The notes under the pieces were generated by a model. That model had not been told where the DNA came from, made no database searches, and saw nothing but the letters and a program-made list of their open reading frames with translations. Both the position numbers and the translations under genes were made by a program. Of a DNA stretch of 64,000 nucleotides, positions 8,173 through 37,694 are shown one piece after another; position 1 is the first letter of the stretch, and each line of letters starts with the position of its first letter. This DNA comes from Acidimicrobiia bacterium (GTDB taxonomy: Bacteria; Actinomycetota; Acidimicrobiia; Spongiisociales; ZC4RG35), in assembly GCA_041747375.1 (NCBI GenBank), contig JBGTFH010000078.1:37558-101557 (forward strand). Reading direction: 5' to 3'.

Positions 8173-8323
8173 AATTCCGTCGGCGGTCTCACAGCTATCT
8201 GGTGTCACCGTCAGAGAGCGGGAAGACCCTGGTCAACCCGTCGAAAACAGGCATAAGCAGGCACGTAAATGTGCCGTGTTTTGGGGCAGGGCGACTCGAT
8301 CGCCCGAATGAGGAGGAACAATA

Positions 8324-10203: not shown

Positions 10204-10991
10204 TCCCGGGTCAACCCGACGAGCCGAAGCGGGCGCTGCCCGCTTTTACGGCCCCTCTAGCCATCTTTGTCGCGATCCTCATCGCATGGCAGATCGCTGC
10301 CACGCGCGGTCTGATCGACTCCCTCCATTTCCCGGCGCCGACAACTATTGCTCAGGCGACCTGGAAAACACTGATGGACGGGACGTTGCTGTCCGATCTG
10401 GTGGCTACCGGCGGCCGTATCCTGTGGGCGGTTGCAATAGGCGGCGGCCTCGGGATGATTCTCGGTGTTGCCATGGGCATGTCCGCCCGATTGCGGGCGA
10501 TTCTCGATCCTTTTGTCGGGGCCCTGCATCCGCTCCCCAAGATCGCGATTCTCCCTCTGATGATGGTTGTCTTCGGAATCGGCGATCTGTCTCTGATTCT
10601 TATCATCGCCGCGGCTGCCTTCTTCCCGATGCTGATCAACACGATGGCCGGGGTCTCCCAGATCGACCCGATTCATATCGACGTGGCCCGTCTCCACCGT
10701 GCCCGGCGTCGGTTGGTATGGCGAAGAGTGCTGGTTCCTGCCGCGGCACCCTCAGTACTAGCCGGTCTCCGCCTCTCGCTGAACACGGCGCTGCTCGTCG
10801 CTATCGCCGTTGAGATGATTGCGGCCGACTCCGGTTTGGGAAACATGATCTGGATGTCGTGGACGACTTTCAGAATCGAGAACATCTACGTCGCGGTCTT
10901 TGCCACGATTGGCTTCGGCCTCGGCGTCAATCTCTTGATCACCGCCATTACCCGCGTTTGGGTGCCCTGGCAAAGGGAGCGAGCACAATGA
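10143..10991 (+). CDS. ABC transporter permease (NitT/TauT family)
   Basis: Multi-TM ORF of BPD-transport type. The only in-frame start candidate is GTG 10143, which overlaps the ATPase gene by 61 nt. The start is therefore uncertain. Confidence 0.75.
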   Translation: MDYLERDRRPGATESARAGLIPGQPDEPKRALPAFTAPLAIFVAILIAWQIAATRGLIDSLHFPAPTTIAQATWKTLMDGTLLSDLVATGGRILWAVAIGGGLGMILGVAMGMSARLRAILDPFVGALHPLPKIAILPLMMVVFGIGDLSLILIIAAAAFFPMLINTMAGVSQIDPIHIDVARLHRARRRLVWRRVLVPAAAPSVLAGLRLSLNTALLVAIAVEMIAADSGLGNMIWMSWTTFRIENIYVAVFATIGFGLGVNLLITAITRVWVPWQRERAQ

Positions 10992-11001
10992 AGAACAACA
11001 C

Positions 11002-12909: not shown

Positions 12910-12919
12910 GGGGCCGACC

Positions 12920-15900
12920 ATGACGCCTGACGCCTCTCTCGTCGACAGGATCACCCGTCTTTCCCCGGAGAAGCGGCTTCTCCTTGAGCAACGCCTGACA
13001 TCGGTGATCACTCCGGTGGAAGGTCCGGTCGCCCATGGCGATGTCGATATCGCACCAACGTCATACGCCCAACGCAGTCAATGGTTCGTCAATCAACTCG
13101 ATCTCGACAATCCGTTTTTCAACAAAACCGACGCGGTGCGTATCAGTGGTCCTCTGGATGTCGATGCTCTTCGCCGGGCGGTCTCGGCGCTGGTCGCCCG
13201 TCATGCCTCCCTGCGAACCGGGTTTCGACTGACCGAAGACGGCCCGGTGCAGGTGGTACATCCGGCCGCACCGATCGATGTGCCCATCCTCGACCTTCCC
13301 TCCGGTCTGCACCAGGTCGCCGAACTGCAACGTCATCTGGCCGCCGAGCAGCGTCAGCCGTTCGACCTCGAGAACGGTCCGATGTACCGGGCGCATCTGA
13401 TCCGTCTCAGTGCCGACGACTATGTGCTGGCACGGACCAATCACCACATCGCGTTCGATCGTTGGTCATCGGCCATCGCCAACGCAGAGTTGTCGGAGCT
13501 CTACTCGCTCTACTCGTCGGGTGAAGGGCGGGATCTGGAGCCGCTCCCCTACCAGTACACCGACTACGCCCTGTGGCAGCGGAGTCACCTGGACGAAGAG
13601 GCACTTTCCAAACATCTCGAGTTCGCTGCAGCGCACCTCGCCGGGGTGCCTCAGATCCTCGACCTTCCCATCGACCATCCCCGGCCAACAACCCAGAGTC
13701 ATCGCGGGGCGTCATATCACGTGTCGCTCGACCGGAACCTGGTCCAAAAGGTTCGTGAGACCGCCAGGGCAGTTGGAGCCACACCATTCATGGTCTGTCT
13801 TGCAGGCTTCGGAGTGCTTGTCGGACGGTACGCGCGCACCGATCAATTCTTGTTAGGTGTCCCCGCGGCCGGCAGGAACGCCGAGGCGTCGGATAGGTTG
13901 ATCGGGCTGTTCATAAACTCGATGGTCATCCGGCTCGACTTGCGGGGCGACCCGACCTTCGCCGAGCTGGTGGCAAGGGTGCGAACCGCTGCTCTGGGGG
14001 CCATGAGCCACCAGGAACTCCCCTTCGAGATCCTTGTGGAGAATCTGGCGAGGGAAAGGGTCCCCGGGCGGACACCGGTGTTCCAGGTGATGCTCGACTA
14101 CGTCAATACGCCAGCGGCGGCTCTCAAATTGGGTTCGCTCGATCTCGAGCCCGTCCCCATCGCCGACGAGGCATCCGTCTACGACATCAATCTCTACTTG
14201 TACGACGACGCGACAGACATCAGGGCCAAGTGGGAATACCGGAGCGACCTATTCGACCGTCCCAGCATCGTACGGATGTCGGAGGCACTTTCCGCGATCC
14301 TCGGGGCCGCAGTGACGGACACAACCCAACCCCTGAGCAGGCTGCCGCTGGTTTCTCCGTCAGACGCAAACCGGATCAACGCCCTCGGTGTGGGCCCAGC
14401 TACCGGAACACCTGTCATCGGGTCGTTTCTGGCGAGGATCGAGGACAATGCCCGGGAACGGCCGGATGCCATCGCGGTGGTGTCCGGGGACACCGTGATC
14501 TCGTATCGCCAAATCTGGGACCAGACGATCAGGGTTAGCCGACGCATCGAATCGGCCTGCGCTCCCGATGCCCGCGTGGCGCTGGTCACGGGAAGGTCCG
14601 CCCAACTAGTCCCGGCGTTGCTCGGGACTCTCCACTCGGGTCGTACCGTGGTCATGGTCGACACCGTCCAGCCTGAACACCGACTGGCCGCTATGTTCGA
14701 CCAGGTCAAAATCGGCGCAATCATTTCGGGCGGAGACTCCACAATGGCCGATTCGATGCCCGGTGTACCCGACATCGAGCAGATGCCTGATGGGGAGGGG
14801 CCACCCGAAGCGATGCGCGCGCACGACACACAAGCCGCCGCATACGTCGTGTTCACTTCGGGTTCGACCGGGGCCCCCCGGGCGGTTGCCATTGGCCGCG
14901 GTGCACTGGAAAACTTCGTCGATGACTCGTGGCAAAGATATCGGCCCGCGCCTGGCGACAGGGTGCTCCAGTTTGCGTCTCCAGGATTCGATACGCTCAT
15001 CGAAGAGGTTCTTCCAACCCTCGTGGGTGGCGCCACTCTGGTTATGCGCCCGTCGGAACTTTTCTCCACCTTTGCCGGGTTCACCAAGTTTGTGGCTGAA
15101 AATGCCATCACCATCCTCGATCTTCCAACGGCCTGGTGGCACGCATGGGTCGACGACATGATCCGAACAGGTGCCGCTTCGGTCCCCGAGTGTGTGCGTC
15201 TGGTGATCATCGGCGGTGAGGCGGCGAGCAGCGATCGCTGGCGGGCGTGGCAACGCATCGCCGGGCGGATTCGTCTGGTGAACACTTACGGCCCCTCGGA
15301 GTCGACTGTGGTAGTCGCTACATTCGAGCCTCCCCGTGACTGGTCGCCGACCACACCCCTGATTCCGATCGGGAGGCCGATCCAAAACACCCGGCTGCTC
15401 GTTGTCGCTGAAAACGGGAGCGAGGTGCCGCCGGGTGTCCCCGGAGAGCTGGTCGTCGCCGGGGCCCCCGTCGGGGATGGCTACCTCGAAGACGACGGGC
15501 GGAATTCGAGTTTCGAGCAGACGGACAGCGGAAAGCGCTACCACACCGGCGACCTGGCCAGGATGTCGGTCGACGGTTCGTTTGAGTTCTTGGGACGAAT
15601 CGATGATCAGTTCAAGGTCAATGGCGTTCGAATCGAGCCGGGCGAGATCGAAGCGGCGCTGGCGGGTCACCAGTCGGTCGACGAGGCTGTGGTTCTCGAG
15701 GTCGACGCCGACGGTCAGCGGGAAATCGTCGGCCATCTGGTCGCTTCGTCCCCGATAGACGATGCCGCGCTCAGGGATTATCTACGCCACCGGTTGCCCG
15801 CGGCGATGGTGCCGGGCCGTTTTCAATTCCACACCACAATCCCGACGACACCTTCCGGCAAGGTCGACAGGGCAGGCATGCGCTCGATGTCCATCGAAAC

Positions 15901-16201
15901 AGGTGCCGGAGTGCCGGAGAAAAAGACAGATCGCCCTCCCACCCCGACCGAGCGTCGCATCAGCAGGATCTGGAACTCAGTGTTGCCCCGGTCGGTGATC
16001 GACCTCGACGCCGACTTCTTTGCCGTCGGTGGGCACTCACTCCTCGGGGTCCGGCTGATCTCGCATGCCGCTGACGAGTTCGCCGTTGCCCTCCCCCTCC
16101 GGATGATCTATGAGGCTCCCACCATCGCCGCCATGGCAGCCTGGATCGATCGTGAGCTCGAAGCGACGGTCTCCGGAGTCGAGACGGTCCATGCCCGATA
16201 G
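12920..16201 (+). CDS. non-ribosomal peptide synthetase, elongation module C-A-T
   Basis: ATG 12920 is preceded by AAGGGG; I prefer it over the 12854 extension, which overlaps the upstream gene. C domain: HHIAFDRWS. A domain: YVVFTSGSTGAPRA, FDTLIEE, YGPSEST, YHTGDL, KVNGVRIE. Carrier: FFAVGGHSLLGV. Confidence 0.92.
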   Translation: MTPDASLVDRITRLSPEKRLLLEQRLTSVITPVEGPVAHGDVDIAPTSYAQRSQWFVNQLDLDNPFFNKTDAVRISGPLDVDALRRAVSALVARHASLRTGFRLTEDGPVQVVHPAAPIDVPILDLPSGLHQVAELQRHLAAEQRQPFDLENGPMYRAHLIRLSADDYVLARTNHHIAFDRWSSAIANAELSELYSLYSSGEGRDLEPLPYQYTDYALWQRSHLDEEALSKHLEFAAAHLAGVPQILDLPIDHPRPTTQSHRGASYHVSLDRNLVQKVRETARAVGATPFMVCLAGFGVLVGRYARTDQFLLGVPAAGRNAEASDRLIGLFINSMVIRLDLRGDPTFAELVARVRTAALGAMSHQELPFEILVENLARERVPGRTPVFQVMLDYVNTPAAALKLGSLDLEPVPIADEASVYDINLYLYDDATDIRAKWEYRSDLFDRPSIVRMSEALSAILGAAVTDTTQPLSRLPLVSPSDANRINALGVGPATGTPVIGSFLARIEDNARERPDAIAVVSGDTVISYRQIWDQTIRVSRRIESACAPDARVALVTGRSAQLVPALLGTLHSGRTVVMVDTVQPEHRLAAMFDQVKIGAIISGGDSTMADSMPGVPDIEQMPDGEGPPEAMRAHDTQAAAYVVFTSGSTGAPRAVAIGRGALENFVDDSWQRYRPAPGDRVLQFASPGFDTLIEEVLPTLVGGATLVMRPSELFSTFAGFTKFVAENAITILDLPTAWWHAWVDDMIRTGAASVPECVRLVIIGGEAASSDRWRAWQRIAGRIRLVNTYGPSESTVVVATFEPPRDWSPTTPLIPIGRPIQNTRLLVVAENGSEVPPGVPGELVVAGAPVGDGYLEDDGRNSSFEQTDSGKRYHTGDLARMSVDGSFEFLGRIDDQFKVNGVRIEPGEIEAALAGHQSVDEAVVLEVDADGQREIVGHLVASSPIDDAALRDYLRHRLPAAMVPGRFQFHTTIPTTPSGKVDRAGMRSMSIETGAGVPEKKTDRPPTPTERRISRIWNSVLPRSVIDLDADFFAVGGHSLLGVRLISHAADEFAVALPLRMIYEAPTIAAMAAWIDRELEATVSGVETVHAR

Positions 16202-18056
16202 CCGACCGAAGAGTCTGCGCACCAAGGCCGTCCTGGCAGATCTCGAAGTCCTTGTCGAACCAGGGGAACGATGGCGATGGGTGGTCCTCGTCGTCCTTGC
16301 TGTGGTCGGGGCCGGTATCGAGGCCGTCGGAGCACTGCTGATCTTCTACGTGACCAGCTGGCTCGTTGGTGCCGACTCCGCTGACGTCCTGGGCGGGATC
16401 CTTCCCCAACCCGGCGCCGAGGGAATACCAGCCGAAGTCATCGCCCTGATCGCGATCTTCTTCATGGTGCGGGGTGGCTTTCTCCTGCTCCTCACCTGGT
16501 TCCAGTCCCGGGCGGTGTATCTCACCGCAGCCGGGATATCCGATCGACTGTTCCGGCGCTACCTGACCGCCCCATACCAGGTCTATCTGACCAGGAATTC
16601 CACCGAGTTGATGCGCAACGCCCTCAGCTCTGTGGAGGGTGTCGCCACCCGGTTCCTGACACCTCTGGTCTCCGTGGTCACCGAGGCGATTGTGGTCGTG
16701 GTACTCATGGTGGTGCTCGCAATCACCGCTCCGTTGGCGACTTTGCTCGTTGCGGCGGTCCTGGGTATTGCATCGATTGTCGTGATGCGGCTGGTTCGCA
16801 CCAGGCTGAGGCGGTACGGAAAACAGGCGGAACGGGCGACGCAGACGAGCCTCGCCACCATCCAGCAGAGCTTCAACGAATCCCGGTCGATCCGCATCCT
16901 GGGAAGAGAGCGATACTTTGCCGACGCCTTCAGCGTCGACCGGCTCGAATTCGCCGAGTCGCGGCTTTCGCTGGCAGTGTTCTCCAAGATCCCCCGTGTC
17001 GCGATCGAGACACTGGTGTTCCTGTTACTGGTCGGTTTCCTCAGTTTCATCTCCACCGCCGATCCGGTGGGGTCAATCGGGGTCTTCGGCCTCTTCGGAT
17101 ACGCAGCACTGCGGATCATGCCCGGGTTGAACGCCGTCGTCAGCGGTCTCAACCTCATCCGATACGGTCAGGCGTCCCTCGACAACGTCATGGGCGATCT
17201 AGCCGACGCAGGCCAGAGTCCACCTGAACTCGACACGTCGGCCGCACCCACGGCAAGACTTCAATGGTCGGAGTTGGTCTTCGACGATGTGTCGTTCACT
17301 TACGGGGAAAAGGCGCCACCGGCATTGGTCAACGCCGACCTGGTCATCAGACGCAATGAGATCCTCGGATTGGTCGGTCATACAGGCTCCGGAAAATCGA
17401 CGTTGATCGACCTGATGTTGGGCCTGCTCGAACCATCCCATGGTCATATCCAGATCGACGGTCGGCAGCTTTCCGACGTCAAGAGAGCCTGGCAGTCGAA
17501 TCTCGGCCTGGTTCCCCAGGACATATTCCTGCTCGACGACTCGATACTGAAAAACGTCGCCTTCGGCATCCCCGAAAATGAGATCGACCGGGAACGTGTC
17601 GAGGAGTGTCTCCGAATTGCACAGCTGGCGGAGTTCGTCGCCAACAGCACACAGGGCGTCGAGACGCGGATCGGGGAGCGCGGCACTTCGATCTCCGGTG
17701 GGGAACGGCAACGGATCGCCATCGCCAGGGCACTCTATGCATCGCCCACGCTTCTGATACTGGACGAAGGAACCTCGGCGATCGACACAATGACCGAGCT
17801 CAACCTGGTCAACGAGCTGAAGAGCTCTGCAGTCATCGATACGGTCATCGTGGTCTCGCATCGTCTGTCCAGCCTTCGAATCTGCGACTCGATTGCCATC
17901 ATGGACCACGGCAGGATCGTAGAGACCGGCCGGTATGAGACACTCATGGAAACCAGTGAAATCCTGTCCGACCTGAGCCGGGCTTCCCATGCGGGGTTGA
18001 TCGGGGAAGGTGATGCACCGGAGGCAGATTCACGGCGTCTACCGTCGGACCGGTGA
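16191..18056 (+). CDS. ABC exporter, fused permease/ATPase
   Basis: N-terminal six-TM-like region followed by an NBD (GHTGSGKST, ISGGERQR, LILDEGTSAID). I chose ATG 16191, which overlaps the NRPS stop codon by 11 nt; the ORF extends back to 16110. Confidence 0.88.
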   Translation: MPDSRPKSLRTKAVLADLEVLVEPGERWRWVVLVVLAVVGAGIEAVGALLIFYVTSWLVGADSADVLGGILPQPGAEGIPAEVIALIAIFFMVRGGFLLLLTWFQSRAVYLTAAGISDRLFRRYLTAPYQVYLTRNSTELMRNALSSVEGVATRFLTPLVSVVTEAIVVVVLMVVLAITAPLATLLVAAVLGIASIVVMRLVRTRLRRYGKQAERATQTSLATIQQSFNESRSIRILGRERYFADAFSVDRLEFAESRLSLAVFSKIPRVAIETLVFLLLVGFLSFISTADPVGSIGVFGLFGYAALRIMPGLNAVVSGLNLIRYGQASLDNVMGDLADAGQSPPELDTSAAPTARLQWSELVFDDVSFTYGEKAPPALVNADLVIRRNEILGLVGHTGSGKSTLIDLMLGLLEPSHGHIQIDGRQLSDVKRAWQSNLGLVPQDIFLLDDSILKNVAFGIPENEIDRERVEECLRIAQLAEFVANSTQGVETRIGERGTSISGGERQRIAIARALYASPTLLILDEGTSAIDTMTELNLVNELKSSAVIDTVIVVSHRLSSLRICDSIAIMDHGRIVETGRYETLMETSEILSDLSRASHAGLIGEGDAPEADSRRLPSDR

Positions 18057-19489
18057 GCACCGACCCCTCGATACCGGCATACGTTGTCGACAAGAGGCAA
18101 AAGTGGCTGGTGCTCGTCACTGTTGCGACCAGTGTCCTTCTCCCGACCATCGACGGGTCGATCGTGAATGTCGCGTTTCCGACCCTCGTCGAGGAACTCG
18201 ATACCACGTTTAACGTGATCCAATGGGTCGCCCTCGGCTATCTCCTCACCATCGCCACGTTCACACTGGGCATGGGGCGACTGGGTGATGTCGTCGGCAA
18301 GAAGAAGATCTATGTCTACGGTTTCGGTGTCTTCACCGGCGCTTCCCTGCTCTGCGGTCTCGCCCCGCAGGTCGAATGGCTGATCACGTTCCGGGTAGTT
18401 CAGGGAATCGGCGCTGTGATGGTGCTCGCCCTCGGATCGGCGATCCTGGTCGAAGCATTTCCCGACCACGAGCGGGGCAAGGCCCTTGGCTGGATCGTCA
18501 CCGCCGTAAGTGTTGGCATCATCACAGGCCCGGTGCTGGGCGGAATCCTCATCTCGGCCTGGAACTGGCGGGCCATCTTCCTCGTCAATCTTCCTGTCGG
18601 AATCGTGGGTACCTGGATGGCAATTCGATTCGTTCCTAACACGAGACCTATCCCCGGGCAGAGATTCGACTTCCTCGGGGCGTTACTGATGGCTCTATCG
18701 CTTTTCAGCCTTTCCCTCGCACTGACTCTCGGACAGGAGTCGGGATTCTCATCAGCCATAGTGCTATCGGGTTTTGCGATCGCGATAGGCACCGCCATCG
18801 CCTTTGTCCTCGTTGAACTCCGTGCTGATTCGCCCATGCTCCAGTTGCGTCTTTTCAAGAACCCCGGACTCACGGTCGGGGTGGTCACCGGGATCATGAC
18901 TTTTATCTGCCTGACGGCGACGTTCCTCCTACTGCCCTTCTACCTGTCAGAAGTGCTCGGTATGGAAGTCCTGGCCATGGGTTTCCTACTCGGGGTCACG
19001 CCACTGATGATGGGAATCGTCTCGCCAATTTCCGGAACACTTTCAGACAGGACCGGTGTCCGTGCTCCCGCAGTTGCCGGCCTCCTTATCCTCGCCGCGG
19101 TCTACTTCGCGTTCCTCAGCCTCGGCGTGGAGACGACCTGGTGGCATTTCGCAGCCCTATCTGTGCCCTATGGAATCGGGATCGGGCTGTTCCAGTCGCC
19201 CACCAACAGTGCGATCATGGGGAGCGTTCCCGCCGAGTACATGGGTGTGGCAGGTGGGTTGCTCCACCTGACCAGGCTGATGGGTCAAGTGGTGGGCATA
19301 GCCGTCCTCGGGTCGATTTGGGCGGCGCGAGTCGCTGTCGCCAACGGTGGAACGCTGCCGGCCGGTGGAGCGACGGCTGCTCCTGGCATTGCCCAGGTCG
19401 CCGGATTGCACACAGTCTTTGTGATCGCCGGCATGATCATGGTCGTTGCCGCAGCCATCGCCGGATGGGGCCTGAGATCCGAGCGCTAA
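18053..19489 (+). CDS. MFS transporter, DHA2/EmrB-like (14-TM type)
   Basis: 478 aa, highly hydrophobic. It has the MFS motif GRLGDVVGKKK. GTG start with a GTGA overlap onto the ABC exporter stop. Confidence 0.85.
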   Translation: MSTDPSIPAYVVDKRQKWLVLVTVATSVLLPTIDGSIVNVAFPTLVEELDTTFNVIQWVALGYLLTIATFTLGMGRLGDVVGKKKIYVYGFGVFTGASLLCGLAPQVEWLITFRVVQGIGAVMVLALGSAILVEAFPDHERGKALGWIVTAVSVGIITGPVLGGILISAWNWRAIFLVNLPVGIVGTWMAIRFVPNTRPIPGQRFDFLGALLMALSLFSLSLALTLGQESGFSSAIVLSGFAIAIGTAIAFVLVELRADSPMLQLRLFKNPGLTVGVVTGIMTFICLTATFLLLPFYLSEVLGMEVLAMGFLLGVTPLMMGIVSPISGTLSDRTGVRAPAVAGLLILAAVYFAFLSLGVETTWWHFAALSVPYGIGIGLFQSPTNSAIMGSVPAEYMGVAGGLLHLTRLMGQVVGIAVLGSIWAARVAVANGGTLPAGGATAAPGIAQVAGLHTVFVIAGMIMVVAAAIAGWGLRSER

Positions 19490-19523
19490 ACCGTCTCATT
19501 GCTCGGCAATTGCAAGTTTTAGG

Positions 19524-20192
19524 TCAAGACCCTGGAAATTCGGCTAGCCACCAAAGGGAGAGGTTGCCGATCGGCCCGTTCAACTGGCGCCATCCGTCGG
19601 TCCCAGGGAGCGCCCTGCCATGGGGTGCGACAAGCAGATGGATCATGGAGCCCGTCGTGTCCTCGAGCGGCGCACCGGTGATCGGCTCCTGGCCGAGACG
19701 GACCCGGCCCTCGAATACCAACTCCTCCCCATCGGCGATTCGCCCGTCGCCCTGATAGACCCCGCCCCTCGCCGAAGTGTCGAGCCCGATGTCATCGATA
19801 TTGCAGAGGCTATCCGTACACCGATCCGGGACGTTGAAGACGATGAACCAGAGCGTGTAGGTTTCCGGCTCTCCCGGTCCGCCTACCGACACCTCGGGAT
19901 GAGCCGAGCCGAACGGCGGCATCATGTCCGCCGTGGGATAGATATAACTACCTGCCGGTGGGGTCGGCATCACCATGCGGAACGCAATCCCGTCTTGGGC
20001 CCGATCCAGGGTGGCTCCGTCGACGGCGACAGGCTCACCGTCGCCTCCTTGGGCGCCGACGTCGGCAGTCTCGGATGAGGCAGACGAATCCGAGCAGCCA
20101 ATGGCGGCGAACGCGATCACCACGAGCAAAGCCGGCCAGACGGTGCCCTTGATGGTTCGCTTCAATTTGTTCGCTGCTAGATGGATCATCAC
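19524..20192 (-). CDS. secreted lipoprotein of unknown family (paralog A of 24033..24671)
   Basis: Signal peptide and lipobox (LLVVIAFAAIGC). Start GTG 20192 or ATG 20189 overlaps the stop of the upstream regulator gene (TGATG). Shares motifs with 24033..24671: YT[LV]W..V.N.P..C....C, GDG, LED, IHL.V..HG. Confidence 0.7.
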   Translation of the reverse strand: MMIHLAANKLKRTIKGTVWPALLVVIAFAAIGCSDSSASSETADVGAQGGDGEPVAVDGATLDRAQDGIAFRMVMPTPPAGSYIYPTADMMPPFGSAHPEVSVGGPGEPETYTLWFIVFNVPDRCTDSLCNIDDIGLDTSARGGVYQGDGRIADGEELVFEGRVRLGQEPITGAPLEDTTGSMIHLLVAPHGRALPGTDGWRQLNGPIGNLSLWWLAEFPGS

Positions 20193-23100
20193 GTTCCTCC
20201 TGGGGTCACTATCACTGCTGCAAAGTCAAGCGGAAGCTCGGTAGGCGGCTCACCCCCGAAGGGAACCAGGAATATGCAACTGACCGCTATAGACCCCCTC
20301 GGCATCAACGCCGTCAGAGTTGTCACCCCGGTGGGCTCGATGACGGACTGCGCCAGCACCTCGCCATAGGAGATCGGGCGGACGTGGGCCAGCGCTTCTC
20401 CGGCGAGAGCCTCGAGTGTCATTCCGTCAGGCACCATGTACATCCCGACGCCAGCGGGCTGGTCGGCTCGGTTCGCGAGCTCGAAGGCGATCACGCGTCC
20501 GGGGGCCAGTCGCAGCTTGCCGCCCTCGATCTCTCCTCCTTCAACAACCTCAGGGGTGCACGATCTGTCTCCCACGGCGATGCGGACCGTCACGTCCGGC
20601 TCCATCTGCCAGACAGGGCTGCGCAGAGCGAAGTCCTGGACGGTCAAGTGACCAAGGCCTATGTCGCCCGCAAGGTTGTCAAGTTGGCCGTCGACGTCAT
20701 CCAGATACCCACCCTCTCGAGACAATCCGACCGCCTGTTCGGCGAATCCCACCACCTGCTCGCCGCTTTCCAGGGTGCCGTCGAGGAAGGCCGCCACAGC
20801 TTGTTCGACGGCCTTGTCGAACCGCTTTACAGTTGAAGTCAGGATGTACTCCCGTTCGATGGGTGATGCGGAAGTGAGATAGGCGTCGACGTTGCTGCCG
20901 ATGACCCAAGGGTGGCCGGCCTCAGACTCACTAGCTGCGGCCACCACTCCCCGCCCCGACTCGCCGGCGTCGTAGAAGATGACATCGGCTCCTTCCGAGA
21001 AGAGCAGCGCCGCTAGTTCTTTGGCCAGGTCGGGACGCCGGATGGCGGTGACACCCGGGTTCTCGACCGGGCCCAGGTACCTCGACAACACCTTGATGTC
21101 CGGGTTTTGGAAGGCGGCGCCTTGCTCGAAGCCGGAGCGGGACTGCTCGACACTGAAGGTTGGGTTTCCTCCGATGAAGCCGATGATCCCCGTGGTCGAC
21201 TTCATCGCCGCGGCGACTCCGGCCATGAACGCAACGTCCTCTACGGCAAAATGGACCTCGGTCACGTTCGGGTGCTCCTCCTTGATCCAGGAAGGGTCGA
21301 TGGCGACGAAGTGGGTACCCGGGTAGTCGTCGGCAACTCGGTCGATCACAGTGTCGAAGTCGCTGCTCACAATGATCAGGTCGGAGCCGGTCTCGGCTAT
21401 CTGCCTCAGGTCAGCTTCGGCGTCGATCAACGGCTCGACGAGTTCAATGGCGAGGTCGTGTTCGCGTTCCGACGCCGCCGCTCCCGCCAACATCAGGTCG
21501 TTCACTGCACCGTCGTTGGTGACACCATGGACCATCGCGATGCGGGGGCCGCCCCCCAGGGCGAAGACCAGACCACCGCCAAGCACAATGAATAGCAATA
21601 GTGTCGCCACGCCCAAACCGACCAGACGCCGTTTCGCCTGCCGGTCCAGTTTGGACTCTCGAGCTGCCCGAATTGCCTCGGCTTCCTTGCCTCGCTCGCG
21701 AAAAGCAACGGAGGTTTCGAGAAATTCGGCCTCGCCTCTGCTCAGAGTCAGGGTGCTGTGCTCGGCCCACCTCTCGTAGCCTGCCAGACGCTCCCCGACA
21801 AGCAGATAACCCTCGGCCCGGTCGGACTCGGCCCACTCGGCGATGGCCGCGGTAAGGAGGGCGTGACGAACAACGTCGTCCCGGCCCTCCTCGATCCACC
21901 CGGCCAGCCGGGGCCAGACGCGGAGCAGTGCCTCATGGGCCACCTCGACGATGCTGGACCCGGTTGCGGGGTCGCGATCGAAGGTGAGTAACCGATACCG
22001 ACCGAACCCGTTGAGGACAGTCTGGAGATCGACCGTGTCTACTGCCAGGTTGATGATCTCCGAGGCGGCGACCCGGCGCCTGCTCCAGGCACCGATGTCG
22101 TTTATGGTCACCAAACGCAGGAATAGCTGCTTGGCCGCAGCCTTTTCCCCCGGGTCGAAGGTCTGGTAGAGCTCCTCGGCTCGGCGGGTGATGGCTCCGC
22201 TCACGCCTCCCATTCCGTCATAGGCCCCGAGAGTCAGGGTGGCGTCCCTTCTGCGGTCGAACAGTTCGGTGAGGGTGAATTGGAAGAGAGGAAGTGCCCC
22301 CGTCTGGCCGGCGACATCGGTCAGGAGGCGAGCGAGAAGCGTCTGTTCGAGGTGAGCGCCGGCTGCGGCGGCAGGCCGTTCGGCAGCGGCTTCGAGCTCG
22401 TCGGGCAAGAGCGGAACCGCGTTGACGACTCCCGCGCCGAGCATCTCACCGAATTCGGGGAAGTCGAGCAGGCGCTCGTAGAAGTCGGCCCGTAGAGCGA
22501 TGATGACCACCACCCGGTGGTGGGGATCCTCGAGGGCGACCTCGAGGTTGCGTATGAATTGGCGCCGTGCCTCGTCGGACGTGACCAAAGTGAACAGTTC
22601 CTCGAACTGGTCGATGATCAGTAGCAGCCGTCCCGACCCCTGTGGGATGATGCGAAGCGCCGCTCTCAGCAGTCCATCCTCGTCATCAAAGTACCTCATC
22701 ACGTCTTCGGGCGGGTCCAGCGCCGATCGAGCCAGAGCGGCTTCTAGTTCGGCGGATGGTCTGGCGCCGGGAACCATGACTGCGATTCGCCAATTCTCCG
22801 TGTCTCCCAACGCGCCCTTGCGGAGAGCAGGGATAAGACCGGCTCGAAGCACGCTCGACTTCCCCGAGCCGCTCGACCCAATGAGCGAAATCAAGGGGAT
22901 CCCCTGGGACAGGCGACGGACGATGTCAGCGACCAGGCGGTCGCGACCGAAGAAGACGCCGGAGTCTTCCTCGCCGAACGCCTGTAGCCCTTTGAAAGGA
23001 TTCGTGCCCACCGCGTCGCGAGGAAAGTTGTCCGCCGGGTCGAGCCGTTCGTCATGGAGCAGGACCTGCTCCTCGATGCTGCTCAGCTCGGCGGACGGTT

Positions 23101-23794
23101 CGACTCCGAGCTCCTCTCCCAAGACGCGGCGGTAGCTCTGGAAAGCACGCAGGGCGTCGGCCTGGCGCCCAGATCGATACAGGGCCAGCATAAGGAGTCC
23201 TATGGGCCGCTCCCTGAGCGGGTAGTTCCGTACCAGCTTCTCCAGATCTCCCACGATCTCGCGATGCTGACCGGCCCGGAGCTTGGCATCGAAAAGGTCC
23301 TCGGTAGCCAATAGCCGGGCCTCTTCGAGACGCGCCATCTCGTCCCTGGCGAATTCGTCGTACTCGAAGTCTTGATAGGCACTGCCCCGCCATAGGGCGA
23401 GGGCACTCCCCAGCAGGTCCGCTGCCGTGTCGGGTTCGTCTCGCACCAGGGCGCGACCACGAGCCGCCTCCGCTTCGAACCGGCAGGAGTCGACGCGGTC
23501 GGGATCGACGACCAATTGGTAACCGTGATCTCTCGTGACGAGGACAGAACTCCTCGCATTGGCCTCCCGGTCGGGCTCGAGAGCCGATCTCAGTCGAGAA
23601 ATGTAGACCCAGAGGGTCTTCTCCTTTCCCAGCGGGTCCTTGGGCCAGAGGTCCTCGAGGATCCGTTCCGTCGAGACCACCCGGTTCATGTTGGCGAGAA
23701 GCAAGGCGAGAAGGGCGCGTTGCTGTCGGGGGCCGATGTCCACCGGCTCGTCATCATCCAGTACTTCAAGTGGACCCAAGATCAAGTAGTCCAT
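20189..23794 (-). CDS. membrane-spanning SARP-family regulator fused to a STAND P-loop NTPase and an extracytoplasmic BMP/PnrA-type binding domain
   Basis: N terminus: LGPLEV...GPRQQRALLALLL (wHTH) plus a BTAD-like helical region. P-loop GSSGSGKSSVLRAGL and Walker B-like LLLIIDQFEELF. One TM helix LVGLGVATLLLFIVLGGGLVFAL, encoded at about 21.55-21.63 kb. Then a BMP-family region (IGFIGGNP..., GADVIFYDAGESGRGV, VIGSNVDAY, TSTVKRFDKAV). About 150 aa of unassigned C terminus follow. I take ATG 23794 (MDYLILGPLEV) as the start rather than 23851. Confidence 0.85.
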   Translation of the reverse strand: MDYLILGPLEVLDDDEPVDIGPRQQRALLALLLANMNRVVSTERILEDLWPKDPLGKEKTLWVYISRLRSALEPDREANARSSVLVTRDHGYQLVVDPDRVDSCRFEAEAARGRALVRDEPDTAADLLGSALALWRGSAYQDFEYDEFARDEMARLEEARLLATEDLFDAKLRAGQHREIVGDLEKLVRNYPLRERPIGLLMLALYRSGRQADALRAFQSYRRVLGEELGVEPSAELSSIEEQVLLHDERLDPADNFPRDAVGTNPFKGLQAFGEEDSGVFFGRDRLVADIVRRLSQGIPLISLIGSSGSGKSSVLRAGLIPALRKGALGDTENWRIAVMVPGARPSAELEAALARSALDPPEDVMRYFDDEDGLLRAALRIIPQGSGRLLLIIDQFEELFTLVTSDEARRQFIRNLEVALEDPHHRVVVIIALRADFYERLLDFPEFGEMLGAGVVNAVPLLPDELEAAAERPAAAAGAHLEQTLLARLLTDVAGQTGALPLFQFTLTELFDRRRDATLTLGAYDGMGGVSGAITRRAEELYQTFDPGEKAAAKQLFLRLVTINDIGAWSRRRVAASEIINLAVDTVDLQTVLNGFGRYRLLTFDRDPATGSSIVEVAHEALLRVWPRLAGWIEEGRDDVVRHALLTAAIAEWAESDRAEGYLLVGERLAGYERWAEHSTLTLSRGEAEFLETSVAFRERGKEAEAIRAARESKLDRQAKRRLVGLGVATLLLFIVLGGGLVFALGGGPRIAMVHGVTNDGAVNDLMLAGAAASEREHDLAIELVEPLIDAEADLRQIAETGSDLIIVSSDFDTVIDRVADDYPGTHFVAIDPSWIKEEHPNVTEVHFAVEDVAFMAGVAAAMKSTTGIIGFIGGNPTFSVEQSRSGFEQGAAFQNPDIKVLSRYLGPVENPGVTAIRRPDLAKELAALLFSEGADVIFYDAGESGRGVVAAASESEAGHPWVIGSNVDAYLTSASPIEREYILTSTVKRFDKAVEQAVAAFLDGTLESGEQVVGFAEQAVGLSREGGYLDDVDGQLDNLAGDIGLGHLTVQDFALRSPVWQMEPDVTVRIAVGDRSCTPEVVEGGEIEGGKLRLAPGRVIAFELANRADQPAGVGMYMVPDGMTLEALAGEALAHVRPISYGEVLAQSVIEPTGVTTLTALMPRGSIAVSCIFLVPFGGEPPTELPLDFAAVIVTPGGT

Positions 23795-23860
23795 CCAGCT
23801 CTCCAAGATTGAACGCTGAGCGCCACCAGTCTCATATTGAAGCACACACACCTTGTCGCC

Positions 23861-23916
23861 GGCTTAATGCCCTGATCCCGCCCCCTGAACAAGGTTTTGG
23901 TAAGCCCGGTTAAGCC
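23861..23916. promoter_or_regulatory. candidate operator repeats GGT(T)AAGCC in the divergent intergenic region
   Basis: GGTAAGCC (23899-23906) and GGTTAAGCC (23908-23916) are tandem direct repeats. An inverted partial copy GGCTTAA lies at 23861-23867. They sit 117-170 nt upstream of ATG 24033. Confidence 0.3.
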
Positions 23917-24032
23917 GCCGACAAGCGAGGGCGGGTTGAGTGGCGGCATCTGGATGGTGGGGCGGGCAAGGAAAGAAAGCGGCCGTTCGGTGGAATCAGC
24001 CGAATGACCAACAAGAGAAGGGAAAGAATCGA

Positions 24033-24671
24033 ATGAGACGACAACTCGGTTTGACTTTGGTGGTGATCGCAATGGTGTTTTCCATGGTGGCCACAGCCGG
24101 AGCAACGGGGTCGGTGAAGCAAACCGCCACCGTCAGCTGGCACGCCCAGCAGGCCCCATTAGGCAAAACCGGAATCGTTGGAGGCACCGGATCAGTCGTG
24201 CGAAGTAACCAGGGGATCAACTTCAATCTGTCCACCTCGGAACTCGTGGAGGGCAACGCCTACACAGTCTGGCTTGTGGTAATCAACAATCCATCGTTCT
24301 GTGCAGCGACGCCGTGCACGGCGCCGGAGATCTTCAACCCCGAAAGCAGATCACAGGTCCGCTTCGGCGATGGTCTGGTTGCCGGCTCATCCGGGCGAGG
24401 CATCTTCTCCGGCAGCGTCAGTGAAGGACCACTGAGCGGATGGCTTCCGGACGGAGCACTCGAAGACGCCCGAACGGCAGAAATCCACCTGGTGGTAAAC
24501 GACCACGGGCCGGCGATAGACGAGTTCATGCCAGGCATGGTCCGCACATATCGTGGCGGTTGCTCGGATGCGAGCCCGTTCCCGGCCATATTCCCGGCGA
24601 CAGCTCTTGCTGACGGCGAGGTTGGGCCGAACATCTGCCGCCTGTACCAGGCATCAGTGTTGGCGCCCTGA
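24033..24671 (+). CDS. secreted protein of unknown family (paralog B of 19524..20192)
   Basis: ATG 24033 is preceded by GAGAAGGGAAAG. Signal peptide LTLVVIAMVFSMVATAGA. Shares conserved motifs with paralog A. Confidence 0.7.
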   Translation: MRRQLGLTLVVIAMVFSMVATAGATGSVKQTATVSWHAQQAPLGKTGIVGGTGSVVRSNQGINFNLSTSELVEGNAYTVWLVVINNPSFCAATPCTAPEIFNPESRSQVRFGDGLVAGSSGRGIFSGSVSEGPLSGWLPDGALEDARTAEIHLVVNDHGPAIDEFMPGMVRTYRGGCSDASPFPAIFPATALADGEVGPNICRLYQASVLAP

Positions 24672-24740: not shown

Positions 24741-26102
24741 ATGACGTCTGAAAGATCGACTACACATCCCGCCGGGACCACCCGAAGGGAATTCTTGAGA
24801 AACAGCTCGATGGCTGCATTCGCACTGATGGTCCCGACAACCTTGTCCGCAGCAAGTCGCCCGATCTCAGGGCCGGCAAGGGTGCACGATGCCGGAGTCG
24901 CCCTGAATTGGTTCGACCTCGCCCTTGACCTGGTCCGGACCACACCGGGGTTCTCCCCTCCAGTCGCGTCTCGGGCCTTCGCCTATCTCGGTATCAGCCT
25001 CTACGAGTCCGTGGTCCCGGGGATGCCTGGATATCGGAGCCTCGACCGCCTTCATCCCGCCCTCGATCTTCCTCCCCGAACTGGGCAACAGAGCCGCTTC
25101 TACTGGCCGGCAGCGGCCAATGCTGCCCTCGCCGCCGCCGCTCGTGGGCTATTCCCGACAACCTCGGCCACCAATCTCGCCGCCATCGACGACCTCGAGA
25201 ACGCTCTCAGCGCTTCTCCCGCCTCGCCAGGTGTGCTCGTGGCCGAATCGGTCGAGTGGGGGAAAGACGTGGCCGCCGCCGTTCTCGAATGGTCACAGTC
25301 GGATGGTGGGCACGAAGGCTATCTCCGCAACTTTCCAACTAGCTATGTCCCGCCGATCGGGGCCGGTCTCTGGGTGCCGACAGCACCCGCATTCCAGAGC
25401 GCCCTCCAGCCTTACTGGGGTGAGAATCGCACTTTCGCTGTCCCCTCGGGAGCCGACTGCGCCTCCGGGGACCATCCGCCATTTTCGGTGGAGGTCGATT
25501 CGGACTTCTATCGGGACGCGGTCGAGGTCTACGACGCGGTGAACGAAATCACCCCGGAGCAGGCTGAAATAGCCTATTTCTGGTCGGACGACCCGGGAAT
25601 CACCGCCACCCCGCCGGGACACTCCATCTCGATCTTGAATCAGGTGGTCAGGGCCGAAGCCGTCGACCTTGCCCGCGCCGCAGACTGCTACCTCAGGGTG
25701 GGAATCGCTGTCTCTGATGCCTTTGTGACCTGCTGGAACACCAAATTCCGGTACAACCTGCTTCGACCGATCACCTACATCAGAGACCTCATCGACGACC
25801 AGTGGACCCCCATTCTCAACACTCCCCCATTCCCGGAATACACGTCCGGTCACTCCGTGCAGAGCGGAGCGGCCTTCGGGGTGATGGCCGACCTCTTCGG
25901 GGATCAACATCGGTTTGTCGACCATACCCACGACGATCGAGGCCTGACCCCGCGGAAATTCACCTCCTTCACCGGGTGCGCTGAGGAGGCCGCAGTGTCC
26001 CGCCTCTACGGAGGTATCCACTTCCGACCAGCCATTGACCTCGGCGTCGCCCAAGGACGTTGCGTCGCCGACGCCGTCGCTCGGCTCCCAATCAAAGGAT
26101 GA
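24741..26102 (+). CDS. Tat-exported vanadium-dependent haloperoxidase / PAP2 (acid phosphatase)-superfamily protein
   Basis: Twin-arginine-like N terminus TRREFLRNSSMAAFALMV. PAP2/VHPO motifs LLRPITY, YTSGHS and SRLYGGIHFRPAID. Confidence 0.75.
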   Translation: MTSERSTTHPAGTTRREFLRNSSMAAFALMVPTTLSAASRPISGPARVHDAGVALNWFDLALDLVRTTPGFSPPVASRAFAYLGISLYESVVPGMPGYRSLDRLHPALDLPPRTGQQSRFYWPAAANAALAAAARGLFPTTSATNLAAIDDLENALSASPASPGVLVAESVEWGKDVAAAVLEWSQSDGGHEGYLRNFPTSYVPPIGAGLWVPTAPAFQSALQPYWGENRTFAVPSGADCASGDHPPFSVEVDSDFYRDAVEVYDAVNEITPEQAEIAYFWSDDPGITATPPGHSISILNQVVRAEAVDLARAADCYLRVGIAVSDAFVTCWNTKFRYNLLRPITYIRDLIDDQWTPILNTPPFPEYTSGHSVQSGAAFGVMADLFGDQHRFVDHTHDDRGLTPRKFTSFTGCAEEAAVSRLYGGIHFRPAIDLGVAQGRCVADAVARLPIKG

Positions 26103-26273: not shown

Positions 26274-27845
26274 GTGAATCAAACAAACGGCGCAGCGGCG
26301 GTGCGCGCGGCCGAGGTGATCGGCTCAGCGTGCCTCGCCACCGACCTCGCGATGGGATTTCCCTTCGAGCATGGGATCGAGTCGACCGTAGTCGCCTCCC
26401 GGCTGGCACGACTCCTAGATGTCGCCATTGAGACCGAAGCGGAGGTCTTCTACGTCAGCCTCCTCATGTATCTGGGATGCAACACCGATTCAGAAGAGAA
26501 TCTCCACCTCTTCGGGGGGTCAATGTTGGAGAATCTCACCCCACATCAGTTCGGGGGGAATCTCGAGATGTTCAAAGGAGTACTTCGGACTCTCCCCGAC
26601 CCTGACGCTGGCGCCATGGCCAGGTCCTATCAGGTGGTTTCCCGTCTACCCCAGGCGCGTAGCTTCCAGGGCGACCACTTCGCTTCGATGTGCGAGGTAG
26701 CGGTTGTTTTGTCGGAGAGGCTTGGTGCCCCTGGTGAAGTGAGTCGGATGTTCAACGTGCTCACCGAGCGTTGGGACGGCAAAGGGGTACTCGGGCGGGC
26801 GTCGAGAGAAGACGTGCCGATTGCACTGCGAATCGCACAGGTGGCCCGCGACGGTGCGTTCCAGAACCTGATCGGCGGGGTTAGCCACGCCGCTGCCGTG
26901 GTGAGGGAAAGGGCAGGCCGTGCTTTCGACCCGACCATCGCCGTGACCTTCGCCGACAATGCCGCCGACCTGCTCGCTGTCGATACGGAAGGATCAGCCT
27001 GGTCCGACTTTCTCGCCCTCGAGCCCAAACCTCACCGAATGCTCGACGCCGAGGAGTTCGATCGGGCCGTCGCTGCCTTGGGGGACTTCGCCGACATGGT
27101 CTCGCCTCGGATGGGCGGTCATTCATCCGGGGTTGCCGACCTGGCCGAGGCGGCCGCCCTCGTCACGGGACTCGACGAGGCGGACAGACGCCGCGTCCGA
27201 CACGCCGCCCTGGTCCATGACGTCGGTCGGCTCGCAGTCCACCCCCGGGTCTGGCAGAAGCCGGGTCCGCTCACCGCGGACGAGTGGGAACAGGTTCGGC
27301 TCCATCCCTATCACACCGGCCGCGTCCTGGCGCCCGCGCTCGCGCTCCAGGGCCTTGCCGACGTGGCGTGTTGTCACCATGAAAGGGTCGACGGGTCGGG
27401 TTATCACCGTGGGGTTCCCGCCGCCGCCCTCGCTCCAGGTGCCCGGCTCCTAGGCGCGGCCGACGCCTTTCACGCCATGGGCGAGCTCCGCCACCACCGA
27501 GATCCGCTGGGCAGCCAGAAAGCCGCAGAGGCACTGGCAGATCAGGCGAAAAAGGGGTATCTGGACCCGGATGCGGTAGCAGCCGTCATCGAGGCGGCGG
27601 GGCTGGATCCATTGGAGGTTTCCGACCCGGGCGACCTCACATCCCGAGAGGCCGAGGTGATCGGTCTACTGGCCCGTGGGTTGCAAACAAAGCAGATAGC
27701 CTCCCGCCTGGGCATCTCTCCGAAGACCGCTGACCACCACATCCAAAACGCTTACCGCAAGATGGATGTTTCCACCAGGGCCGCAGCCGCTCTTTACGCC
27801 AGTGAACACGGACTGGTGCCGTGGGGAGAACTCCCCATTAAATAG
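26274..27845 (+). CDS. HD-GYP-like phosphohydrolase domain fused to a LuxR-type HTH
   Basis: HSSGVADL...LVHDVGRLAV...HHERVDGSGYHRG (an HD-GYP-like motif with GYH in place of GYP). The C-terminal LTSREAEVIGLLARGLQTKQIASRLGISPKTADHHIQNAYRKM is a GerE/LuxR HTH. GTG start. Confidence 0.8.
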   Translation: MNQTNGAAAVRAAEVIGSACLATDLAMGFPFEHGIESTVVASRLARLLDVAIETEAEVFYVSLLMYLGCNTDSEENLHLFGGSMLENLTPHQFGGNLEMFKGVLRTLPDPDAGAMARSYQVVSRLPQARSFQGDHFASMCEVAVVLSERLGAPGEVSRMFNVLTERWDGKGVLGRASREDVPIALRIAQVARDGAFQNLIGGVSHAAAVVRERAGRAFDPTIAVTFADNAADLLAVDTEGSAWSDFLALEPKPHRMLDAEEFDRAVAALGDFADMVSPRMGGHSSGVADLAEAAALVTGLDEADRRRVRHAALVHDVGRLAVHPRVWQKPGPLTADEWEQVRLHPYHTGRVLAPALALQGLADVACCHHERVDGSGYHRGVPAAALAPGARLLGAADAFHAMGELRHHRDPLGSQKAAEALADQAKKGYLDPDAVAAVIEAAGLDPLEVSDPGDLTSREAEVIGLLARGLQTKQIASRLGISPKTADHHIQNAYRKMDVSTRAAAALYASEHGLVPWGELPIK

Positions 27846-27873: not shown

Positions 27874-28236
27874 ATGAGAAGCAGCCACGACACCAGGACA
27901 TCGCCCCAGCATCTGGGTGTTGCGATTCTGGGCAGCTTCGTACTGGTGGCCGCAATCGTGGTGACCTCGATTCAGGATGGATCAGCCTTTGGGACGCCTG
28001 GATACTGGGCATGGATCCTGACCGGGTTCCAGGTTGTCGCACTCCGTGCAGCGGCGACCGGCCGAAGTTCGGGTTGGCTGTTGGGAGCGTCTGTTCAACT
28101 TCCCTGGATTGCGTACGCACTGGTCACCTCGCAGTTCGGTTTTATCCCCGGTTGCCTCATCTCCGCAGTTGTCCAGGCCAACGGTTACCTGCGTCGATCG
28201 CCAACAAGCCACCTCAAGAAGCCCACCTACGCATAA
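27874..28236 (+). CDS. small integral membrane protein, unknown function
   Basis: 120 aa with 3-4 hydrophobic segments. I chose ATG 27874 because the upstream extension overlaps the previous gene. Confidence 0.45.
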   Translation: MRSSHDTRTSPQHLGVAILGSFVLVAAIVVTSIQDGSAFGTPGYWAWILTGFQVVALRAAATGRSSGWLLGASVQLPWIAYALVTSQFGFIPGCLISAVVQANGYLRRSPTSHLKKPTYA

Positions 28237-28246
28237 GGAGAAGACC

Positions 28247-37617: not shown

Positions 37618-37694
37618 TACGGGATGGTTCGAGAAAAGTCAAACCAGGGTCGTTGACCTCGGGCGGCGAGTTTCCAGACTGTTATCGTCCGAAG

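Follow-up and report, generated by a model that had tools for sequence, protein, structure and literature searches.

The 64,000 nucleotides analysed here (the window: positions 37,558 to 101,557 of contig JBGTFH010000078.1, numbered from 1 in what follows) come from an uncultured Acidimicrobiia bacterium, represented by a metagenome-assembled genome (MAG) from hot-spring metagenomes, and carry on the minus strand, at 20189..23794, the gene of a regulator in which a SARP-type DNA-binding module, an nSTAND1 NTPase, one transmembrane (TM) helix, a BMP-type solute-binding domain and a cupredoxin-like tail succeed each other along a single polypeptide. When sequence comparisons and predicted structures are considered together, this protein is reasonably likely to be a single-pass, membrane-anchored one-component activator, ToxR-like and gated by a nucleotide-binding oligomerization domain (NOD), which controls a regulon of its own. 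This regulon is probably small and local, consisting of positive autoregulation plus secreted beta-sandwich proteins. In other words, the ToxR-like membrane-tethered transcription factor envisaged in a preliminary description of this DNA is supported, and additional support comes from 11-bp-phased repeats that, within the window, are confined to the region upstream of the regulator. The window sequence is present nearly complete in hot-spring metagenomes, and the listed sequencing runs that contain the locus are all DNA metagenomes, with no RNA run among them.

The open reading frame (ORF) of the regulator extends over 20189..23851 on the minus strand and encodes 1220 amino acids when a GTG is taken as start. 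An ATG at 23794, with a GGAGAG Shine-Dalgarno sequence 5 nt on its 5′ side, leads to a product of 1201 amino acids (1201 codons plus the stop), to which all residue numbers refer. At the N-terminus, an OmpR-type winged helix-turn-helix (wHTH) domain (Trans_reg_C, residues 23-94, 23513..23728 on the minus strand, Pfam 1.8e-14), whose matches in the PDB include PhoB, EmbR and AfsR, directly precedes a BTAD, or bacterial transcriptional activation domain (residues 101-245, 23060..23494 on the minus strand, Pfam 2.3e-44). This is the arrangement that characterizes SARPs, and the two domains together constitute a SARP module. Accordingly, residues 1-265 match solved structures with values from 4e-30 to about 3e-28, in particular EmbR (4e-30) and AfsR (3e-29 to 2e-28). 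The nSTAND1 NTPase follows (PF20703, residues 266-661, 21812..22999 on the minus strand, Pfam 1.1e-109 over profile positions 1-378 of 379) and represents a full NOD module, with a Walker A of the GxxxxGK[ST] type and an acidic Walker B. Specifically, GxSGSGKS at residues 306-313 (G306-S313) and DQFEE at residues 395-399 (D395-E399) are invariant across 121 homologues, including K312, D395, E398 and E399. With an N-terminal output (SARP) and a C-terminal sensor (BMP domain and tail) placed around the NOD, the protein has the layout of STAND proteins. NCBIfam agrees at the level of the domains, while the regulator falls below every equivalog cut-off; no second copy of it is found in the 64-kb window. 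The wHTH/BTAD motifs, the P-loop GSSGSGKSS and the IDQFEELF motif that the preliminary description had read in the sequence are thus all recovered, with the key residues of the two NTPase motifs invariant among the homologues, and both the BTAD and the BMP assignments are upheld by Pfam and by relatives of solved structure.

The NTPase is separated from the BMP domain by a predicted single TM helix, oriented N-in/C-out on the basis of hydrophobicity and flanking charge (residues 724-747, 21554..21625 on the minus strand), which corresponds to the hydrophobic helix noticed earlier at about 21.55-21.63 kb and is the only strong hydrophobic segment of the protein. Its Kyte-Doolittle mean over 19 residues is 2.46, well over the usual TM threshold, and every other segment reaches at most 1.6. 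Counting lysine and arginine in the 30 residues on each side, ten are found on the N-terminal and two on the C-terminal side, and in the 121 homologues the corresponding means are 7.5 before the helix and 1.2 after it. The dominant helix occupies the same place in all of these homologues (121/121) and is the sole hydrophobic segment in 114. In addition, the number of cysteines C-terminal of the helix is even in 115/121 homologues, with C1079 kept in 107 and C1173 in 119, whereas the single cytoplasmic cysteine of the target is not conserved among them. The characterized relatives of the BMP domain are extracytoplasmic lipoproteins (PMC7093131). Because of the charge bias, the ectodomain cysteines, the extracytoplasmic BMP relatives and the signal sequences on the co-encoded partner proteins described below, we favour the N-in/C-out orientation; all indicators agree in pointing to it, and would place the two halves of the protein on opposite sides of the membrane.

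The BMP/PnrA-type domain, of the PBP1 ligand-binding class, covers residues 754-1026 and extends to about 1045 (PF02608, 20717..21535 on the minus strand, Pfam 3.2e-44), confirming the BMP-family region that had been recognized after the helix. Both the PBP1-type fold and the sequence signature are present, and the C-terminal half of the regulator matches the solved structures of BmpA (1.4e-23), PnrA/TmpC (2e-21), BmpD (4e-20) and, more weakly, Med (1e-9). In the pocket of BmpA, the base is held by an aromatic sandwich formed by F27 and F176, plus F151, and the ribose is contacted by D98, D225 and K242 (PMC13325309). When this residue list is mapped through a HMMER alignment, the ribose-contact positions turn out to be kept, namely D833 (D in 109/121 homologues), position 968 (D in 86, E in 23 and N in 9) and K990 (K in 115/121). 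The aromatic cradle of the nucleobase is replaced in the target by V764 (F27), S885 (F151) and V910 (F176), and within the family these positions vary by subfamily, with I or V at 764, S, F or R at 885 and V, Y or others at 910. A standard nucleoside ligand is therefore unlikely, as the aromatic cradle is lost even though the ribose triad is retained. Conservation of the nucleoside-binding residues thus holds for the ribose triad and fails for the nucleobase-stacking phenylalanines, so that a nucleoside sensor cannot be assumed. In other words, the pocket is under selection, yet it is no canonical nucleoside site, and the most that can be inferred about the input is a candidate diol- or ribose-like ligand with no stacked base, or else ligands specific to each subfamily. 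The usual setting of a BMP lipoprotein next to its ABC importer is also missing, the domain being tethered by an internal TM helix, with no conserved ABC permease or ATPase in the three orthologous loci L001-L003.

The C-terminal tail (residues 1046-1201, 20192..20659 on the minus strand, with a core at about residues 1068-1198, 20201-20593) had been described as about 150 residues that could not be assigned. This is correct insofar as the tail has no match in Pfam or NCBIfam, whereas its fold can now be proposed from an AlphaFold2 model built on an alignment of 27 tails. The model (predicted local distance difference test, pLDDT, 85.3; predicted template modelling score, pTM, 0.82) consists of nine strands and one helix, with the first 20 or so residues disordered. 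Searched with Foldseek against the PDB, it matches auracyanin (E 2e-6), many two-domain laccases and FtrB, with TM-scores (template modelling) that are modest, at 0.44-0.54; together with the Greek-key beta-sandwich topology, this identifies the modelled fold as cupredoxin-like. The invariant residues of the tail are H1049, C1079, N1108, P1140 and C1173, and the two cysteines would most simply form a disulfide. A type-1 copper site was considered and rejected, since neither the target nor the consensus has a His or Met after C1173 and the Cys-His-Met ligands are absent. The tail is a variable module: this length is found in the 64 closest homologue clusters of the 120 listed, and more distant homologues have tails of 80-330 residues, some of them with SnoaL-like or DUF4440 domains.

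A candidate for the DNA signal that such a regulator would recognize emerged when upstream regions were compared with one another. Classical SARP operators consist of heptamer repeats with an 11-bp period (PMC10972967), and in the case of AfsR two 11-nt repeats are occupied by a dimer whose subunits lie side by side (PMC10936776). In the 238-bp intergenic region between the regulator and the divergent gene, a candidate SARP box, TAAGCCGGCGACAAG, faces the regulator (23852..23866, minus strand), with two xAAG half-sites at an 11-bp period and starting 72 nt before the ATG. A candidate array of such boxes faces the divergent gene (23890..23925, plus strand), in which CAAG, TAAG, TAAG and CAAG are spaced by 11, 10 and 11 bp and which includes TAAGCCGCCGACAAG at 23911-23925; the two 15-mers differ by one base. 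The pattern TAAG-N8-AAG has two matches in the whole 64-kb window, both in this intergenic region and one facing each gene. Looser repeats behave in the same way, as 16 of the 18 matches to YAAG-N7-YAAG in eight loci lie no more than 260 bp upstream of the regulator. A scan of 19 BMP-type loci (621 kb when both strands are counted) returned 18 matches to TAAG-N8-AAG, 11 of which lie on the regulator strand at -68 to -92 and five at -125 to -157 on the other strand, with two elsewhere. The box thus has the same position and orientation in 11/19 family loci, accompanied by opposite-strand boxes in five. Such consistency of position and orientation, retained down to 45% protein identity, is strong. 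In the more distant loci L084-L086, a TAAGG-N6-AAAGG box is found at about -80 to -90.

The genes that these candidate boxes face encode a hitherto unannotated kind of secreted protein. Directly downstream of the regulator lies a partner gene (19524..20189, minus strand) for a secreted or lipoprotein-like beta-sandwich protein of 221 amino acids, recognized by AlphaFold2 and by a family hidden Markov model (HMM). Its ATG shares the A with the TGA stop codon of the regulator (TGATG overlap) and is preceded, 6 nt on the 5′ side, by a perfect Shine-Dalgarno sequence, AGGAGGA, an arrangement that indicates translational coupling of the two genes. On the other side of the intergenic region, a divergent paralogue (24033..24671, plus strand) encodes 212 amino acids with a signal peptide, the listed ORF being 23940..24671 and M32 the likely start. 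It matches the partner at 4e-10 and protein L003_212 at 4e-64 by blastp, and the family HMM at 1.5e-63; one or two divergent paralogues are also present in L002 and L003. An orthologue of the partner lies immediately 3′ of the regulator in L001-L005 and L011, with 50-77% identity in L001-L003. Searched with the HMM, the partner family occurs beside the regulator in the window, in L001-L006 and in L011, that is, in 8/8 loci with the cupredoxin-like tail, and is absent from the other loci examined. The family counts 79 clusters, all named 'hypothetical' and none with a Pfam domain, and many of its members are on contigs that agree in length with those carrying a regulator.

The AlphaFold2 model of the partner is an all-beta sandwich with a pLDDT of 88, rising to about 92-98 in the mature part, and the search of the PDB with Foldseek gave no significant match to this fold (best E 0.03). 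Repeated entries in that list are Cu/Zn superoxide dismutases and FetP, at TM-scores of about 0.2-0.3, which is a lead only. Among the invariant residues of the family are two cysteines (CTDxxC), H97, H184, H190, D132, D133 and a WW pair. As modelled, the partner family would thus comprise unannotated secreted beta-sandwich proteins of about 200-240 amino acids that fold with confidence. More distant BMP-type loci, including L084-L086, also have a small divergent gene, which comes from different unannotated families, and in L084-L086 a hemopexin-repeat protein is encoded by one of the genes downstream. Upstream of the 88%-identical orthologue in L001 (6541-9787) lie genes for a secreted cupin-like protein, CopC/CopD and a DUF1775 (YcnI-like) protein. 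A link to copper or other metals, which could be drawn from these L001 genes, the cupredoxin-like tail and the weakly superoxide dismutase-like partner, is speculative. These copper-type neighbours are not conserved in L002 and L003, and L001-L003 share no neighbourhood beyond the partner genes.

Taken together, these features can be arranged into a mechanism, in which the switch is modelled on AfsR and MalT, where the sensor exerts autoinhibition and ATP brings about activation (PMC10936776), and the membrane tether on ToxR and CadC. Outside the cell, the signal would be either the secreted protein encoded by the partner gene or a small diol- or ribose-like ligand that has no stacked nucleobase. 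Its perception would lift the autoinhibition of the NOD, which would then take up ATP and undergo a conformational change or oligomerize in the plane of the membrane. As a consequence, two or more SARP modules could be aligned side by side on the 11-bp-phased xAAG direct repeats. Since one set of repeats faces in each direction, towards the regulator's own operon (regulator and partner) and towards the divergent paralogue, both promoters are proposed to be activated. The preliminary description had introduced SARPs as activators of secondary metabolism; this role does not seem to apply here, the likely targets being the flanking genes for secreted proteins.

The regulator is not an isolated case. 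The preliminary description presented its architecture as unusual, which does not hold in the sense of a one-off: its four Pfam domains recur together in at least 120 homologue clusters, most of them from MAGs of Acidimicrobiia (the best 120 at 44-88% identity), and these already bear domain-based names in databases. Where a name is given, it is 'BTAD domain-containing putative transcriptional regulator', 'BMP family ABC transporter substrate-binding protein' or 'nSTAND1 domain-containing NTPase', and the JGI label reads 'basic membrane lipoprotein Med/DNA-binding SARP'. In a search of one genome per species, full-length matches were found only in MAGs of Acidimicrobiia, Acidimicrobiales and Actinomycetota. 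An exhaustive search with the ectodomain against 1.84 billion representatives at 50% identity gave 148 matches at E<=1e-30, and most of the non-tandem samples scanned with Pfam proved to carry this fusion, complete or truncated at the N-terminus. Two other fusions were encountered, P0257 (1342 amino acids), which combines SARP, Ser/Thr kinase, nSTAND1 and BMP domains, and P0297 (569 amino acids), with an adenylate/guanylate cyclase and a BMP domain; the BMP fold therefore serves as sensor in more than one type of receptor.

A wider group of relatives, matching in the N-terminal part only (loci L015-L083), extends this picture. A strongly hydrophobic helix lies about 418 residues past Walker A in 72/76 of these proteins, and lysine and arginine are more numerous on its N-terminal than on its C-terminal flank in 68/69. 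The helix is followed by WD40 propellers in 45-48 of 69 proteins, and by BMP domains in most of the remainder. In front of the NTPase are found Ser/Thr kinase domains (48 of 69) and SARP modules (39, some proteins having both), as well as LuxR, XRE and cyclase domains and, in one member, a TIR domain. The taxa represented are Acidimicrobiia, other Actinomycetota and Chloroflexota. Judging from these domain orders, the regulator is the BMP-sensor, SARP-output branch of a modular clade of the form output-nSTAND1-TM-sensor. It is quite possible, though short of probable, that this clade represents transmembrane NLR-like (NOD-like receptor) receptors, in which a BMP or WD40 domain outside the cell is connected through the TM helix to a NOD switch and from there to interchangeable outputs (SARP, Ser/Thr kinase, LuxR, cyclase or TIR).

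Several points weigh against a membrane-anchored activator of this kind. The whole analysis is in silico, based on sequence comparison and predicted structures. The passage of a signal from a single TM helix to a NOD is purely inferred and would be unprecedented. Some doubt also arises from the WD40 domains that follow the helix in most members of the clade, as bacterial WD40 domains are usually cytoplasmic, and spanning by the helix is not assured in every case. Within the pocket, position 968 of the target is Asn and not Asp. As for the operator, exact TAAG-N8-AAG is missing from 8/19 loci, and the Poisson values of 5e-40 and 9e-25 calculated for the pattern overstate its significance, the pattern having been chosen post hoc. 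Finally, a scan of positions 19300-24200 for sigma-70-type -10/-35 elements found none, be it near the boxes or elsewhere in this stretch.

The doubt about the helix leads to an explanation in which the hydrophobic segment would not span the membrane, or would be a peripheral anchor, and the BMP domain and tail would act as cytoplasmic sensors of a soluble STAND regulator. It draws on the presence of the same helix before WD40 propellers, which in bacterial STAND proteins are normally cytoplasmic sensors. The hydrophobicity of the segment is nevertheless above that of the usual TM threshold, the positive-inside bias is strong and universal, the even cysteine count of the ectodomain is conserved, the co-encoded partners have signal peptides and the characterized BMP proteins are all extracytoplasmic (PMC7093131, PMC13325309), and we regard a non-spanning segment as highly improbable. 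A different matter is what the ectodomain would perceive if it does lie outside. Rather than a small molecule, the BMP and cupredoxin-like domains might sense the co-encoded secreted partner, free or loaded with a ligand or metal, which would make the partner both input and output of the system. Analogous sensor systems rely on a separate binding protein, the partner family strictly co-occurs with the subfamily that has the cupredoxin-like tail (the 8/8 loci mentioned above), and the two are similarly rare, with 79 partner clusters against about 64 regulator clusters of this tail length among the 120 listed. Translational coupling would imply stoichiometric co-production, the invariant His, Asp, Glu and Cys residues of the partner suggest a binding site, and the BMP pocket has lost its aromatic cradle. 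On the other hand, the ribose triad is still under selection, which favours a small-molecule site, and distant BMP-type members keep the BMP domain in the absence of the partner family. All considered, partner sensing is a serious candidate that we still find rather unlikely.

Two further explanations concern the output of the regulator. It adjoins a nonribosomal peptide synthetase (NRPS) cluster (4180-19489, plus strand), composed of condensation (C), adenylation (A), thiolation (T) and thioesterase (TE) domains in the order C-A-T-TE at 4180-8172, A-T at 11002-12909 and C-A-T at 12854-16201, with an NMT1-like binding protein and an ABC importer between the NRPS genes (8324-10991) and an ABC exporter (16110-18056) and a major facilitator superfamily (MFS) transporter (18053-19489) after them. 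SARPs typically are cluster-situated activators (PMC10972967), and the location of the gene beside NRPS genes and exporters of the ABC and MFS types would invite the same assignment here. The cluster end and the regulator are, however, in convergent orientation, the box pattern has no match in the whole NRPS region, both matches of the window being in the regulator's intergenic region, and the 88%-identical orthologue and two others (L001-L003) lie in unrelated neighbourhoods free of NRPS genes. With a neighbourhood that is not conserved and no boxes in the cluster, regulation of the NRPS genes was rejected and retains a very low probability. Alternatively, the locus could be a conflict or defence system in which the NTPase senses an invader and the SARP, as effector, switches on a protective or suicidal response, in keeping with the definition of nSTAND1 in predicted conflict systems and its presence in putative antigen sensors diversified by diversity-generating retroelements (PMC10907252), and with the clade member that has a TIR N-terminus. 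Against this, PADLOC returned only a P-loop-level match for the regulator (E 0.007) and none for the partners, and the outputs of the clade are overwhelmingly those of signalling, with the kinases and SARPs counted above and LuxR, XRE and cyclase domains besides. Moreover, the sensor has a solute-binding fold and an extracytoplasmic position, the flanking genes encode small secreted proteins and not nucleases, proteases or toxins, and family loci have no neighbourhood in common apart from the partner genes. A defence role is accordingly very doubtful, and a membrane-anchored activator of its own neighbouring genes is retained as the preferred explanation.

Other genes of the window touch this subject less directly. 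Just 3′ of the divergent partner gene, a PAP2-superfamily protein is encoded at 24741-26102 (plus strand), whose N-terminus, TTRREFLRNSSMAAFA, resembles a twin-arginine export signal. It is followed by a gene for a fusion, 523 amino acids long, of an HD_5 (HD-GYP-like) phosphohydrolase with a C-terminal LuxR/GerE helix-turn-helix domain (26274-27845, plus strand). A flavoprotein resembling Lys/Orn N-monooxygenases (28034-29395) hints at a hydroxamate siderophore. Farther along, at 37653-40505 (plus strand), the window has a second STAND/LAL-like protein, of 950 amino acids, with an adenylate/guanylate cyclase domain, an AAA_22 P-loop domain and TPR repeats.

In the general view, STAND/NLR-type switches sense signals in the cytosol, and SARPs are soluble proteins that activate antibiotic clusters. 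If the proposed mechanism is true, a NOD switch can also be linked to an extracellular signal, and the physiology of SARPs extends past secondary metabolism. If the wider clade is what it may be, it represents a distinct class of transmembrane signalling in bacteria, widespread among Actinomycetota and Chloroflexota and standing beside two-component systems, ToxR-like regulators and receptor kinases. Its SARP-BMP member would then be the most tractable entry point, because both the cis-element and the local regulon can be predicted; in fact, with a predicted operator, two flanking targets and a separable ectodomain, it offers an unusually testable case. The partner family adds new secreted proteins that fold confidently, with no Pfam model and no significant match to a solved structure. 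A 2024 review of SARPs distinguishes small, medium, large and SARP-LAL classes, and the word 'transmembrane' is absent from it. Literature searches on SARP, BTAD, nSTAND1, Bmp and membrane found no published description of a SARP-nSTAND1-TM-BMP architecture, in agreement with the earlier remark that no such signalling route was known to have been characterized. The combination of domains is already displayed in databases, and the architecture itself is thus not a discovery; what is so far uncharacterized are the signalling route, the operator, the partner family and the wider nSTAND1-TM clade.

In its way of working, the regulator would resemble both a membrane-tethered activator of the ToxR type and a NOD-gated SARP of the AfsR type. 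By its sequence, it belongs to the SARP, nSTAND1 and BMP families, yet it lacks the functional hallmark of each of them. With the nSTAND1 proteins of conflict systems it shares the NTPase family (Pfam 1e-109). Those proteins combine it with effector-associated, protease or TIR domains and with lectin or formylglycine-generating enzyme (FGE) sensors, and their nSTAND1 examples are predicted to be cytoplasmic (PMC10907252), whereas in the clade described here the outputs are signalling domains, a TM helix is present and the sensors are of the WD40 or BMP type. With PnrA/TmpC, BmpA, BmpD and Med it has in common the fold, the sequence family and the ribose-contacting Asp/Asp/Lys positions, and Med, which is named 'transcriptional activator of comK gene' in the PDB, is a precedent for a regulatory BMP protein. 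Unlike the BMP lipoproteins, however, the domain is not a lipoprotein, is covalently joined to a transcription factor, has no conserved ABC permease nearby and carries V, S and V in place of F27, F151 and F176 (BmpA numbering). A STAND NTPase that, depending on a small ligand and ATP, gates the domain binding to DNA is also found in MalT of E. coli (cited in PMC10936776), which differs in being soluble, with a LuxR-type DNA-binding domain at the C-terminus and a cytoplasmic sensor.

AfsR and the other large SARPs of Streptomyces (SARP-NOD-TPR) resemble the regulator in their N-terminal wHTH and BTAD, in the STAND-class NTPase and in the C-terminal sensor. Direct repeats of 11 nt are the binding site of AfsR, which ATP activates (PMC10936776), and the candidate boxes found here have the same 11-bp phase. 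The NTPase is nSTAND1 in the regulator and NB-ARC in AfsR, and a TM helix follows it here; in addition, the predicted sensor is extracytoplasmic and formed by BMP and cupredoxin-like domains, whereas that of AfsR is cytoplasmic and made of TPR repeats, and the regulator has no link to a conserved biosynthetic cluster. ToxR, CadC and TcpP are membrane-bound one-component activators in which an OmpR-type wHTH at the cytoplasmic N-terminus is connected by one TM helix to a sensor in the periplasm. The regulator has the same predicted order of cytoplasmic wHTH, single TM helix and extracytoplasmic C-terminal sensor, and would likewise bind DNA at the membrane. It differs from them in the roughly 460 residues of BTAD and nSTAND1 placed between the wHTH and the TM helix, as those proteins have neither BTAD nor NTPase, and in its ectodomain, to which their periplasmic folds are unrelated; any homology to them would be confined to the wHTH. 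The regulator is thus best described as working like the ToxR/CadC group while not being a member of it.

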